Virus genome (UHGV): UHGV-0092003
Strand: one strand, 5' to 3'
DNA: 64,000 nt
Origin: a virus
Shown here one piece after another: positions 51,586 through 55,366 of this stretch; the first letter of the stretch is position 1, and each line of letters begins with the position of its first letter. Under the pieces are notes generated by a model. That model had not been told where the DNA came from, did not search any database, and was given only the letters and a program-made list of their open reading frames with translations. The position numbers and the translations under genes are program-made.

Positions 51586-51766
51586 AGGTTGTTTTGGTTC
51601 AGCATTGACAGCCTCAGAAAAAAGCGAGATCTGCGCCCGGTGTGGTGACAGATCTCGCTGTCATGATGAAGCCCGCAAAAATATTGAGGCTATGTTTGGA
51701 AAGTTTGTCGGATTCCCGATTGACAGCATTAAAAATAAAAAAAGAACTACGAAGGAAAGCACATGA
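51575..51766 (+). CDS. small Cys-containing protein (63 aa)
   Basis: ORF overlapping both neighbours; CxxC. Confidence 0.3.
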   Translation: MMNKGCFGSALTASEKSEICARCGDRSRCHDEARKNIEAMFGKFVGFPIDSIKNKKRTTKEST

Positions 51767-54135
51767 AGGCATTAATGGTACGCACCGATTTTTCTCTTGG
51801 TGAGTCGGCGTTGAAAGCAAGCCGCGTCGTCGCGGTCGCGAAGGAGTTGGGTTACTCGGCCATTATTAGTGCCGACACAATGAATCTGGCGTCCATCATC
51901 CCATTGCAGCAGTCGGCCGGCGACGACATGGCTGTTATTTGCGGAGTCCGTTTGGTTATTAGTGACAATCCTTTTTATGAAGCAGCTGTTAGAAAAGCCA
52001 AAGAGGAAGGCACTGAGATCCCGGTATGCAAGCTTGGGCGCCCGTACAGCTTCACCGCGCTGATAAAGAACGATGAGGGGTATAAAGATCTGTGTGAACT
52101 GATGACGTTGGGCAACCGCCGCGAGCAGTTTCACTTTTTCCCGCGCATCTCGCTGGAGCAGCTGGCCGAAACGTATTCAAAGGGCAACATCCTTCTGCTG
52201 ACGTCTGATCGCGATAGCATATTTCATCGGCAGGACTTCGTTAAAATCCTGACTACATTGCTGGCGGCTGGTGGTCGTGACAACTTCTACAGCGTCGTGT
52301 ATCCGATTCCTACGCCTCTCTACGATCAGTTGAACATGAAGGCGATGAAGGTGGCTAATGCGCTTAAAATCGCCCCTGTTGCGTTCTATCCAGCTTATTA
52401 CGAGAAAGAAGAGGATGCAGACCTGCGCGACATTGCGCACATGGTAATCAATAACATCAAAACGGATCAGCCATATCGTTTTCACATCCCACACCAGCGC
52501 GACAACTCAATCCAGAACCGCAAGCATTTGTTGGTTCGCTTGATGGAGTTCTCGAAACGCATGGGAGTAGAGGGAATCAGCTCTGCAATGGTTAACGAGA
52601 CTCAGGACGAAATCATTGCGGCGTGCAGCTGGCGCTGGCATGAGATGCCAGTCAGTCTGCCAGTTATGGCGGAAGATGAAGGTGATACGTTGACGCGCAT
52701 GGCGGCGGAAGGTTTGAAGCGTCGGTTAACAACGCTTGAATTTGGCTGGAAGCCACCAGCGGAGCAGTACCCTGTCTACATCAACCGTCTACGTTATGAG
52801 TTGAGTGTTTTGAAAAAGTTGGGGTTCTGCGGCTACTTCCTGATGGTTGAAAATCTACTGTCATGGGCGCGTAAACAGGATATCCCGGTCGGGCCAGGTC
52901 GTGGATCGTCAGCCGGTTCACTTGTTGCGTGGGCGATTGGGATCACCAACATCGACCCGCTACGCCACGGTCTCCTGTTTGAGCGTTTCATCAACCCTGA
53001 ACGTCTGGACTTGCCTGACGCGGATCTGGACTTCAGTCAGGCGCAACGACCTCGCGTACTTGAATATCTCGAAGAGCACTACGGCGAAAAATACGTGGCC
53101 GGCATTCCTAACTTCTCTTATCTGGGTATGGCGTCGGCACTCCGAGACACAGCACGTATCTACGGCGTGTCAACGGAAGATATGGCGGTATCTAAGCAGC
53201 TGAAGCCATTCGATGATGAGGGATTAACTCTCGAAGAGACGCGCGAGCAGCTGGGCGCCCTCGACAAATACGCGAAAGCAAACCCGGAAGCATTCGACGC
53301 CGCGTGCAAACTCCAGTCACTGATGCGCAGCTATGGCAAGCACGCCGCGGGTGTCATCGTTTCTGGCGTACCACTGACTGAGCGAACACCAGTCGAATTA
53401 CGCAACGGGGTGCGCTGTATCGCGTTTGACAAGCGTTTCTGTGAATCAATGGGGCTTATCAAGCTGGACGTGTTAGGGCTGGCTACGCTCGATTTACTGG
53501 CTCTCGCTAAACGCTACATCAAAGAGAACGAGGGGATCGACGTTAACCTCGACGCAATCCCTCTCGATGATAAACGCGTCCTTGAGGGTATGGCGTTGGG
53601 TGAAACAACTGGCGTGTTCCAGTTCGAGTCTGGCGGCATGAGAAACCTGCTTAAAAACCTTGGAAGCGGCATCAAACCAATGTCGTTTGAAATGGCCGTC
53701 GCAACTACCGCGCTATATCGCCCAGGCCCAATGCAGTCCGGCATGATGGATACCTACGTCAGCGTTGCGCGTGGTTATGAGGACGCTCACTCACTTCACC
53801 CAAGCCTTGACGAATTGACCAAAGAAACCAACGGGGTTTTGGTCTATCAGGAACAAATCATGAAAGCGTCGCAGATCCTCGCCGGCTTCTCTCTGTCGGA
53901 AGCAGATATGGTAAGGAAGGCGATTGGTAAAAAAGACATCGAGAAGATGAAAAAGATTGGCGCCGACTTTTCAGATCGTGCGCAGCTTGGTTGGTTGGAA
54001 GTCCAGACTGACGACGGCCAGATTGTCACTGTTCATCGCGCCGCGCTTCATCCGTGCTCTGATGGCAAGAAACGCACTGTCGAGCAAGCCATGGAAGATG
54101 ATGCCGACATTATTGAATTTGACACCTCTAAATAA
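51763..54135 (+). CDS. dnaE: DNA polymerase III α (DnaE-type), N-terminal segment (PHP + palm/fingers)
   Basis: GPGRGSSAGSLVAWAIGITNIDP…PDADLDF catalytic region. Ends with a ~48-aa non-homologous tail. Confidence 0.8.
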   Translation: MKALMVRTDFSLGESALKASRVVAVAKELGYSAIISADTMNLASIIPLQQSAGDDMAVICGVRLVISDNPFYEAAVRKAKEEGTEIPVCKLGRPYSFTALIKNDEGYKDLCELMTLGNRREQFHFFPRISLEQLAETYSKGNILLLTSDRDSIFHRQDFVKILTTLLAAGGRDNFYSVVYPIPTPLYDQLNMKAMKVANALKIAPVAFYPAYYEKEEDADLRDIAHMVINNIKTDQPYRFHIPHQRDNSIQNRKHLLVRLMEFSKRMGVEGISSAMVNETQDEIIAACSWRWHEMPVSLPVMAEDEGDTLTRMAAEGLKRRLTTLEFGWKPPAEQYPVYINRLRYELSVLKKLGFCGYFLMVENLLSWARKQDIPVGPGRGSSAGSLVAWAIGITNIDPLRHGLLFERFINPERLDLPDADLDFSQAQRPRVLEYLEEHYGEKYVAGIPNFSYLGMASALRDTARIYGVSTEDMAVSKQLKPFDDEGLTLEETREQLGALDKYAKANPEAFDAACKLQSLMRSYGKHAAGVIVSGVPLTERTPVELRNGVRCIAFDKRFCESMGLIKLDVLGLATLDLLALAKRYIKENEGIDVNLDAIPLDDKRVLEGMALGETTGVFQFESGGMRNLLKNLGSGIKPMSFEMAVATTALYRPGPMQSGMMDTYVSVARGYEDAHSLHPSLDELTKETNGVLVYQEQIMKASQILAGFSLSEADMVRKAIGKKDIEKMKKIGADFSDRAQLGWLEVQTDDGQIVTVHRAALHPCSDGKKRTVEQAMEDDADIIEFDTSK

Positions 54136-54147
54136 TAAGTAAAATGT

Positions 54148-54188
54148 GAAAACAAGTTGTTTTTTAGCTTCTGAAAACAACTTGTTTA
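54148..54188. promoter_or_regulatory. inverted pair of family-B dyads forming a 15-bp stem-loop
   Basis: GAAAACAAGTTGTTTT-ttagcttct-GAAAACAACTTGTTTA in the 70-nt gap between the dnaE segments. Confidence 0.55.
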
Positions 54189-54205
54189 ATAACAAAGGGA
54201 AACAC

Positions 54206-55366
54206 ATGAAGATTACTAAAATCATCTCAGAGAAGCCCGGACTCAGCGAATCAAAAGCAAAAGAGGTATGGGATGCTTTCGAGAAATTCGGGTCGTATGG
54301 CTTTAACAAATCACACGCAGTGGCCTATACCGCAATCAGCTACCAGGCAATGTATCTGAAGACTCACCATCCGGCTGCATTCTTCGCCGCCGCACTGACA
54401 ATTCAGGACGATGAAAAGCATCGTGCAGTTGTAAAGGATGCGCTGGCACGCGGCGTTATCGTGATGCCACCAGACATCAACCTCTCAACTGACCGCATCG
54501 AAATAGTCGAAATGAAGGATGGTCGGACGGCGTTATATGCCCCCTTCTCAGCTGTCAAAGGTTGTTCTGAAAAAGGCAGCTTAGCCATTATGCGTGCTCG
54601 CGAGCGTGTAGGTGGTAAGTTTGAGTCGCGAGCACAATTTAAGGAAGCGATAGAAGCCAGACTCTGCAATATCCGGGTTCAGGAGGCTCTGGAAGCCGTT
54701 GGCGCGTTTGCCAGTATTGAGCCTGGCAGCGAACCAGCGATGGCGGAATCCCGCCGCAAGGCTCAATCAGAGCTGATGGGAAGCCTCATTATCGATGCGG
54801 TAAAAGTGAGTCGCCCGTTCGAGATGAATCCGAAACGCCAGGCTGAAGTGTCAATGTTGATGGAAGAGCTGCGTAAAGAGGTCGGGGTGGGCGAAGATCT
54901 CGTTACCCCGCATATCGGCGTATCGCCAAAAATAATGATTATCCTCGACACAGCAAACGGCAACGATATCAGGACGGGGATCTTCATGGAGAACGGCTAC
55001 GAAGATTTTAAGGCGAAAATGCTCGTTAATGGCGATCTGCGCATGAGCGAGGTGTACGTTACCGGCGTCATTAAGCAGGATAAGAAGTTGCCACTGTCCC
55101 GCGACGCAGAGAACACCTACATCGAGTTTATGAAGAAAGAGCTTGAGCTGGTTAAACCAACCTACGTCCTGACGTGTGGTCGCCTGTCGGCCAGTCTCTT
55201 CAACGACAAAACCAAGGCAACGGATTTGGTCGGACGTAAGGAATACTTTGGCGCAATGGACTTGACCGTATTTTACGGATTCAATCCGGGTATACTTCAC
55301 TTCAGACCGGAAGAAGGCGAGAAACTGGAACTTATTATGGAAGACATTAAGGAGGCATTGTCATGA
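54206..55366 (+). CDS. dnaE: DNA polymerase III α (DnaE-type), C-terminal segment
   Basis: FEKFGSYGFNKSHAVAYT conserved DnaE motif. Own canonical RBS AAAGGGAAACACATG. Confidence 0.75.
   Translation: MKITKIISEKPGLSESKAKEVWDAFEKFGSYGFNKSHAVAYTAISYQAMYLKTHHPAAFFAAALTIQDDEKHRAVVKDALARGVIVMPPDINLSTDRIEIVEMKDGRTALYAPFSAVKGCSEKGSLAIMRARERVGGKFESRAQFKEAIEARLCNIRVQEALEAVGAFASIEPGSEPAMAESRRKAQSELMGSLIIDAVKVSRPFEMNPKRQAEVSMLMEELRKEVGVGEDLVTPHIGVSPKIMIILDTANGNDIRTGIFMENGYEDFKAKMLVNGDLRMSEVYVTGVIKQDKKLPLSRDAENTYIEFMKKELELVKPTYVLTCGRLSASLFNDKTKATDLVGRKEYFGAMDLTVFYGFNPGILHFRPEEGEKLELIMEDIKEALS

Follow-up and report, generated by a model that had tools for sequence, protein, structure and literature searches.

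A two-piece DnaE-type polymerase gene in a phage-plasmid, with a probable non-splicing relic of a split intein at its break

The virus genome UHGV-0092003, analyzed here as a stretch of 64,000 nucleotides (the window), encodes a DnaE-type DNA polymerase (Pol III alpha) in two adjacent open reading frames (ORFs). We take the window to be a Klebsiella SSU5-like phage-plasmid. A 1-kb query across the junction of the two ORFs (53700-54700) was 100% identical to plasmid NZ_CP103584.1, and the matching records in PLSDB numbered 25 at 95-100% identity and 4 more at 81%. All features described below lie on the + strand. The N-terminal ORF (N-half, 51763-54135) encodes 790 aa with the C-terminus ...DADIIEFDTSK and is closed by a tandem stop, TAA TAA, read directly from the sequence at 54133-54138. 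The C-terminal ORF (C-half) starts at ATG 54206, preceded by AAAGGGAAACAC, and ends at 55366 (386 aa). An earlier reading of the window (the original prediction) had given these limits with a 70-nt gap between them, and had seen a canonical ribosome-binding site at the start of the C-half; both descriptions hold.

The canonical DnaE part of the N-half (aa 1-742; 51763-53988) comprises the PHP domain, the polymerase core (palm/thumb), and most of the fingers domain, with Pfam matches to PHP (6-150), DNA_pol3_alpha (309-572), and DNA_pol3_finger (575-740). It is followed by a 48-aa tail (aa 743-790, LGWLEV...EFDTSK; 53989-54132), which we read as a putative relic of the C-terminal lobe of an N-intein. 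The 70-nt gap (54136-54205) is empty in the window and corresponds to the position of an HNH homing endonuclease gene (HEG) in relatives. Within it, paired direct copies of the palindrome (GA)AAACAA[G/C]TTGTTT, at 54150-54162 and 54175-54187, form a 15-bp hairpin (54150-54187). A Shine-Dalgarno (SD)-like AAGGG and the C-half ATG follow at 54195-54208, and both the SD-like element and the ATG are conserved in lineages lacking the HEG. An upstream GTG at 54146, an alternative C-half start in the ORF listing, is used by no relative. The first ~10 residues of the C-half, MKITKIISEK (54206-54235; the head), are a candidate relic of the first β-strand of a C-intein. The remainder (54236-55366), delimited by Pfam and by alignment to Taq, contains the end of the fingers domain with GYGFNKSH (residues 30-37), a helix-hairpin-helix (HhH) region (HHH_6, 83-172), and a weak C-terminal domain resembling uracil-DNA glycosylase (UDG; PF03167, 271-337, 18 bits, below cut-off). 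The C-half Met lies 32 residues before FNKSH, in agreement with the prediction that homology resumes about 30 residues before the GYGFNKSH motif.

The hallmarks of a DnaE-type enzyme (PHP, DNA_pol3_alpha, fingers with GYGFNKSH, HhH) are thus all present, spread over both ORFs, and a fused relative from SSU5 aligns over its full length to the Taq and Escherichia coli Pol III alpha subunits (E = 1e-122). Because PHP, palm, and most of the fingers reside in the N-half and GYGFNKSH and HhH in the C-half, each ORF alone is an incomplete polymerase.

The two-ORF arrangement is found in a close relative at 97% nucleotide identity to the window (L002), in Klebsiella oxytoca (L005; 81% identity, 70-nt gap), and in a further Klebsiella sp. 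(L004; 66% identity, 84-nt gap). It is also found in L011 and L012, with gaps of 73 and 56 nt, and in the IMG/VR lineages L018 and L088, with gaps of 72 and 65 nt. At least six diverged lineages therefore carry a split without a HEG, with gaps of 56-84 nt. In every HEG-less lineage examined, an SD-like element lies a few nucleotides before the conserved ATG of the C-half, and the frame of the C-half relative to the N-half is 0, +1, or +2, depending on the lineage. Every split C-half begins MK(I/V/A), mostly MKI..I; this start lies 32 aa (in occasional cases 33) ahead of FNKSH, even in relatives at ~31% identity. Since the frames vary and each C-half has its own SD element and ATG, a conserved frameshift, readthrough, or bypass is argued against. 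Between the window and L005, the ratio of nonsynonymous to synonymous substitution rates (dN/dS) is 0.032 for the N-half body, 0.064 for the tail, 0.027 for the C-half body, and 0.085 for the relic as a whole, values that indicate strong purifying selection on the two halves and on the tail. Because the split recurs with low dN/dS in independent assemblies and lineages, it is neither a sequencing artefact nor a decaying gene; it is real and old. The original prediction of a two-piece polymerase gene, as opposed to a frameshift error, is confirmed by dozens of independent assemblies and by lineages down to ~31% protein identity, and the comparison with related phages that it proposed finds the split conserved across diverged lineages.

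Fused and split forms coexist in the wider family. In PLSDB, ~202 records, Yersinia pestis and Salmonella plasmids among them, have a fused junction of the SSU5 type, and ~30 have a window-type junction region. Among 80 loci sampled from IMG/VR, 41 are fused, and the split ones comprise 29 whose gap holds an ORF and 10 whose gap is empty. In a library of 1.84 billion representative proteins (50% identity), 10 of the 11 full-length DnaE proteins among the matches were split and one was fused; the ten split N-halves measure 756-790 aa and terminate directly past the relic. An apparent absence of fused DnaE in searches with the C-half or a 250-aa N-half fragment is probably an artefact, as those searches listed no match above about 1.75 times the query length and may hide fused homologs; a query with the full N-half gave both forms. 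In a neighbor-joining tree, all members of the window clade whose gap state is known have a split with an empty gap, and the SSU5-like sister clade is a mixture of all gap states.

The tail belongs to an insertion that is shared across this family. Homology of the N-half to Taq Pol III alpha stops at the equivalent of Taq residue 788, and that of the C-half restarts at 790. The fused SSU5 DnaE (1172 aa) has a counterpart of the tail, with its residues 740-792 (~53 residues) inserted between Taq 788 and 790. Alignment of the junctions of 10 split and 12 fused relatives revealed a single homologous insertion of ~55-65 residues, retained in frame in fused proteins of 1168-1210 aa. In split forms, the stop, gap, and ATG fall at the turn between two predicted strands (ADIIEF | DTSK* M | KITKII), the position at which fused forms from Xenorhabdus carry VEIRIEGKLVKGVIVG. 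A few family members (P0337, P0026, P0035, and P0036) lack the insertion and have a canonical DnaE junction instead. The claim that the tail has no counterpart in DnaE is accordingly correct for canonical bacterial DnaE and fails within the phage-plasmid family, where fused proteins share the tail.

To search the PDB and known inteins, we used a profile of the junction insertion (alignment A1). Against all PDB sequences, cyanobacterial DnaE inteins were the top matches, beside designed TIM barrels that we judged spurious. The E-values were 1.6e-6 for 7qil, 7.8e-6 for 2keq (Npu), 8.2e-6 for 4kl5, 3.2e-5 for the isolated N-intein 4qfq, and ~0.01 for Ssp DnaE, with profile positions 9-55 aligned to intein residues 62-108. 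Comparison of the insertion with the Npu DnaE intein using hhalign gave a probability of 92.2% and E = 5.9e-7. The profile scored 27.9 bits on Npu, versus ≤8.9 bits over 2000 shuffled copies at equal database size. Split forms alone gave 27.0 bits, and 19.4 bits (E = 0.007) when the two deepest relatives were left out. In the 1.84-billion-protein library, the relic profile also retrieved short fragments from metagenomes in which block B is canonical (CTREH and CTGEH). A structural search with Foldseek ranked DnaE inteins first, with E-values that were not significant. Ordinary homology (37-54% identity in A1) connects the window with L006 and L007, the deep relatives, and because the window is clearly homologous to relatives that carry the profile signal, it is linked to inteins through them.

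In the hhalign register, the tail corresponds to about residues 52-102 of the Npu DnaE N-intein (IntN). Window K790 matches Npu P101, the stop codon matches the last N-intein residue, and the C-half Met matches the Met of the C-intein (IntC), which places the N-half stop ≤1 residue from the equivalent of the natural C-terminus of the Npu N-intein. The head, MKITKIISEK, aligns with the Npu IntC start MIKIATRK in PDB chains of fused inteins and is predicted to supply the final strand (residues 53-60) of a half-Hint mini-domain. Together, these comparisons indicate that the tail and head are a truncated split-intein relic, homologous to inteins. Because the stop codon and the C-half Met match the boundary between N- and C-intein, the break in the gene appears to coincide with the natural split point of inteins, which is also the canonical point of endonuclease insertion. 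The original prediction had stated that no intein-like sequence is present, a statement that the profile comparisons overturn (7qil, 1.6e-6; hhalign, 5.9e-7), in agreement with the structural search. It had also placed the break near the split site of cyanobacterial DnaE, and this is accurate: the insertion point of the relic lies 22-24 residues upstream of the cyanobacterial intein site.

Several results weigh against this interpretation. The sequence signal stems from the split forms and is strongest in L006 and L007; sub-profiles of the window clade alone or of the fused forms alone were not significant. As a single sequence, the window tail had no intein match in a phmmer search of the PDB, and Pfam scans of single relic sequences detected no Hint family. 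AF2, moreover, may itself lean toward folds that are already known. Neither a relative with a complete intein at the relic site nor a C-half with a longer head was found, and among the N-halves of the 1.84-billion-protein library, none extends further into an intein. The neighbor-joining tree does not discriminate between a fused-first and a split-first order. In split inteins, an anionic region of IntN pairs with a cationic region of IntC (PMC11766414); the relic's tail is acidic in every case (−3 to −6) and its head basic in only some (−1 to +4), such that an intein-like electrostatic "capture" of the halves would be weakly supported by their charges. Lastly, association of the two halves and activity of the enzyme are what we infer from sequence.

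The relic appears unable to splice. Block A and Cys1/Ser1 are absent, as the DnaE sequence ...DFSDRAQ runs directly into the equivalent of Npu residue ~52, with ~50 N-terminal intein residues missing. The Thr-x-x-His of block B is replaced, Npu T69 corresponding to window H760 and Npu H72 to A763. Also gone are blocks F and G, together with the terminal His-Asn and any Cys/Ser/Thr at +1; past MKITKIISEK, the DnaE sequence continues as PGLSESKAKEVW... The relic keeps ~60 of ~137 intein residues. Because every splicing residue has been lost, the halves are not expected to be ligated. The intact form can be seen at another site of dnaE in L007 (Acinetobacter), where a complete fractured intein is present: ...GPGRGS|CFLAGH...CTKDH...*, a 308-aa ORF, and MAKLV...GIPVHN|CGGSLVAY. 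This locus (1691-5352) is from Acinetobacter brisouii BKFY01000005.1; the intact site lies in the motif GPGRGS|AGSLVAY, the 308-aa ORF has no Pfam match on record, and recA of the same locus also holds an intein (PF14890).

In many relatives, the gap between the halves is occupied. Relatives with a gap ORF have 580-780 nt, including a whole HEG ORF, between the halves. In L003, this is a NUMOD4-HNH-HTH ORF, carried by 243 PLSDB plasmids, 194 of them at ≥99% identity. A NUMOD4-HNH ORF also occupies the gap in the distant L006 and L007, and Cronobacter-type alleles (L010) have an unrelated NUMOD3-HNH ORF. In L013, a 184-aa ORF in the gap (3681-4235) has no Pfam match, is dissimilar to the HNH ORFs, and may be a third kind of mobile ORF. 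L088 and L089 form a HEG-minus/HEG-plus allele pair that differs by a clean 714-bp indel (the HNH ORF), with flanks 97.8% identical. No HEG homolog was found anywhere in the window by tblastn. Identity between lineages is 34-40% for the NUMOD4-HNH protein and 34-51% for the DnaE C-half, a similar divergence that is consistent with long co-residence. L003 and SSU5 are ~83% identical over dnaE and 49-53% identical beside the HEG, over ~350 nt on its 5′ side and ~100 nt on its 3′ side. This divergent patch is consistent with the pattern expected of co-conversion with homing; the patch was no closer to any other lineage compared, and no donor was found among them.

Rearranged products also occur at this site. 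In an E. coli fused allele (L008 pJH51-3; P0319/P0231; 1168 aa), the flanks are almost the same as in the split L003 type and ~10 residues are gone exactly across the break; this suggests that the stop codon, HEG, and start codon were deleted and the gene thereby re-fused. P0025 combines NUMOD4-HNH domains with a match to ~59% of the C-half query (391 aa), a DnaE N-part is joined to RecA_N in P0292 and P0321, and P0024 has Pfam matches to gp32 and to an HhH domain (HHH_6). These chimeric products suggest frequent deletions and rearrangements near the HEG site.

The hairpin in the window's gap has a 15-bp stem (−17.3 kcal/mol, z = −4.2 versus shuffles). Its motif, AAACAA[G/C]TTGTTT, occurs five times in the window (30526, 33225, 54150, 54175, and 62293), versus 0.17 expected. 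Each of the three copies outside the gap ends 11-30 nt before a start codon; one of the genes preceded in this way encodes a DnaB-like helicase (33257-34618). The SSU5 copy (L001, 56-68) ends 19 nt upstream of the start codon of a CobT-like gene, and the motif is also found upstream of the HEG in L089 (4163-4175) and in the gaps of L005, L011, and L088. We take the motif, in the wider form (GA)AAACAA[N]TTGTTT, to be a probable regulatory element general to gene starts in SSU5-like phage-plasmids, serving as an operator or as part of a promoter. Hairpins of differing sequence are present in 5 of 7 HEG-less gaps, and no significant gap structure was found in the HEG-less L012 and L088. The inverted dyad pair that the original prediction placed in the gap is there, as the two motif copies; its "family-A half-site" could not be identified. 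A scan found no + strand terminator-like site in 53600-54600 and no promoter or terminator in the gap. A group I or II intron was considered and rejected: Rfam models searched over 53400-54800 at E ≤ 10 gave two chance hairpin matches only, and the extra non-coding sequence is 70 nt.

We consider it likely that the window encodes a split DnaE with the fossil of a non-splicing split intein, which has lost its endonuclease and now forms a two-subunit polymerase. The ancestral state would have been a "fractured gene" composed of an N-part, a free-standing HNH homing endonuclease, and a C-part, an arrangement that many relatives keep; the window's locus fits step III of a published gene-breaking model (PMC2677866). 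Splicing would have been lost first and the endonuclease second in the window lineage, leaving the 70-nt spacer. Translated from same-strand genes with their own ribosome-binding sites, a 90-kDa N-subunit and a 44-kDa C-subunit would then assemble non-covalently into an active polymerase, completing the fingers domain. The relic could dock the halves by β-strand complementation between tail and head: the predicted half-Hint receives its last strand from the C-half, and this predicted contact between fragments is the one that split inteins use. Such a docking role is plausible, and the purifying selection fits a constraint on docking or folding. About the stronger proposal, that tail and head are a domesticated pair of split-intein fragments kept as the heterodimerization module of the polymerase, we are rather more doubtful than confident. 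If it is true, natural intein halves have been exapted for non-covalent assembly after the loss of splicing, and the in-frame relic of fused relatives (Yersinia pestis pMT1-type and Salmonella pHCM2-type plasmids) would be the trace of a later re-fusion.

Other explanations of the locus are less probable to differing degrees. From the RefSeq-derived plasmid records, where no coding sequence (CDS) is listed under the match, one might suspect a break introduced in sequencing or assembly, or a pseudogene made by a recent inactivating mutation; the missing CDS suggests that the pipeline treats the locus as broken. However, the split recurs in many independent assemblies and in lineages at 97%, 81%, and 66% nucleotide identity (to ~31% protein identity), both ORFs are intact everywhere with dN/dS ~0.03, and the SD element and ATG are conserved, which leaves next to no room for this explanation. 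An equally slight chance attaches to the idea that tail and head are a working, tiny split intein that ligates the halves by protein trans-splicing. Homology to DnaE split inteins and a break at the natural split point speak for it, but only ~60 of ~137 residues are left, the Thr of block B is changed to His and its His to Ala, and block A, Cys1/Ser1, blocks F/G, His-Asn, and the +1 residue are gone; moreover, fused relatives retain the relic in frame, and the intact split intein of L007 shows what a functional form looks like. Programmed recoding (bypass of the T4 gene 60 type, frameshifting, or readthrough) that joins the ORFs is very improbable as well. The window has a last sense codon AAA, stop codons, and a nearby hairpin, and a landing at AAA 54200-54202 would enter the C-half frame, but this T4 gene 60-type AAA...AAA take-off/landing pair is found in the window only and is not conserved. 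The last codons differ between lineages, L004 and L012 have no matching in-frame landing codon, frame (0/+1/+2) and gap length (56-84 nt) vary, two lineages lack the hairpin, and many relatives have 580-780 nt with a whole HEG ORF between the halves; the conserved SD element, ATG, and MKI start argue for independent initiation.

Two further explanations deserve more weight, and both are unlikely. The insertion could be an unrelated small β-rich domain whose likeness to inteins is convergent, in a gene cut by a HEG in a tolerant surface loop, as in Aeh1 nrdA/mobE. The non-significant sub-profiles of the window clade and of fused forms, the lack of a Pfam Hint family in single relics, and the non-significant Foldseek E-values are all in its favor, as is an insertion site unlike every known DnaE intein site (PMC2677866). 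Slightly less likely again is that the gap hairpin, as an attenuator or terminator, controls how much C-half is made relative to N-half, a possibility compatible with a relic-bearing two-subunit polymerase, to which it would add a level of regulation, and close to the attenuator-controlled split that the original prediction had entertained. Its strength (z = −4.2), the hairpins of other sequence in 5 of 7 HEG-less gaps, and the hairpins upstream of HEGs and C-parts in fractured genes, for which translation control was proposed (PMC2677866), would agree with such a role. Nevertheless, the stem is A/U-rich and is followed by AAUAAC, lacking the G+C-rich stem and U-tract of an intrinsic terminator; the scan yielded no + strand terminator; L012 and L088 have no significant structure; and the hairpin consists of two copies of a motif that singly precedes the helicase gene and others. 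An attenuator-controlled split is thus not borne out, and a protein-binding or promoter-type element is a better fit to the motif.

Directly 5′ of dnaE lies a gene for an AAA_5/CbbQ-like ATPase (50335-51585), named "porphyrin biosynthesis protein" in GenBank, and the dnaE start is overlapped by a 63-aa ORF (51575-51766). This synteny is kept in all relatives examined. At the other end of the polymerase, the weak UDG-superfamily match (window 55016-55216; C-half aa 271-337) replaces the OB/tau-binding region of cellular DnaE, and no OB domain was found by Pfam in either half. The UDG family is stronger in the C-half of more distant relatives, according to precomputed Pfam annotations, and GenBank records name the whole C-half "uracil-DNA glycosylase." Most RefSeq-derived PLSDB records that match 53700-54700 have no CDS under the junction, and the L003 record lists the N-half only; the RefSeq halves are probably annotated as pseudogenes, a class that the PLSDB table omits. 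Hundreds of clinical plasmid records appear to treat one half or both as broken genes, or the C-half as a uracil-DNA glycosylase. The locus is a polymorphic hot spot and could mark phage-plasmid lineages.

Our literature searches turned up no description of the window's split dnaE locus. The nearest published relatives are the "fractured genes" of Dassa, London, Stoddard, and Pietrokovski (2009, Nucleic Acids Research), which include three metagenomic DnaE loci and the HEG-less gp41-7 (PMC2677866). There, as at the window's locus and its relatives, an N-part ending in intein-N and a C-part opening with intein-C flank, within one operon, a split point at which a free-standing endonuclease sits (in the window's case, in its relatives). 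Hairpins were described upstream of the HEGs in fractured genes, one of them kept before the C-part in a HEG-less locus (PMC2677866), and the loss of a HEG that leaves an upstream hairpin before the C-part, step III of the published model, is a likeness to the window. Measured against the definition of a fractured gene, the window has adjacent, co-oriented parts with putative intein-N and intein-C relics; the endonuclease between the parts is absent (it is present in L003, L006, L007, and L010), and there is no catalytically complete split intein. The window differs from the published cases in that its intein halves are cut to ~50 and ~10 residues without catalytic residues, the HEGs of its relatives are HNH (NUMOD4/NUMOD3) and not GIY-YIG or Vsr-like, the insertion point is another one, and the split occurs in phage-plasmids of Enterobacteriaceae and Acinetobacter and not in marine metagenomes. 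With the cyanobacterial Ssp/Npu DnaE-n/-c pair, the window shares the host protein, the fingers domain, and a homologous break position within the intein, and this intein is the closest to the relic in sequence and in predicted fold. In contrast, the window's insertion lies 22-24 residues upstream, its genes are adjacent and not dispersed, and its relic is non-splicing.

T4 gene 39/60 with mobA is a gene in pieces made by a free-standing homing endonuclease. The gp43 DNA polymerase of Aeromonas phage 25 is reportedly split by such an endonuclease as well, with no intein (Petrov et al.). For Aeh1 nrdA/mobE (Friedrich et al. 2007), the NrdA pieces are reported to form a functional enzyme (summarized in PMC2677866). 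In all three, as in the window, a HEG has divided an essential replication enzyme between two ORFs, and by analogy such HEG-split genes of the Aeh1 type are the closest mechanistic model for the window enzyme. Unlike the window, they have no intein-derived sequence at the break, and the window clade keeps its split without a HEG. A natural end-state of the intein/homing-endonuclease cycle in which splicing and endonuclease are both lost and an essential enzyme is still in two pieces was not found described. The survival of intein fragments as docking domains is testable, as Klebsiella and E. coli phage-plasmids offer fused, split+HEG, and split−HEG alleles. Set beside these known systems, what appears new at the window's locus and in its relatives is a non-catalytic pair of intein fragments, HNH endonucleases, a new DnaE insertion site, and a clade-wide split that has outlived its endonuclease.

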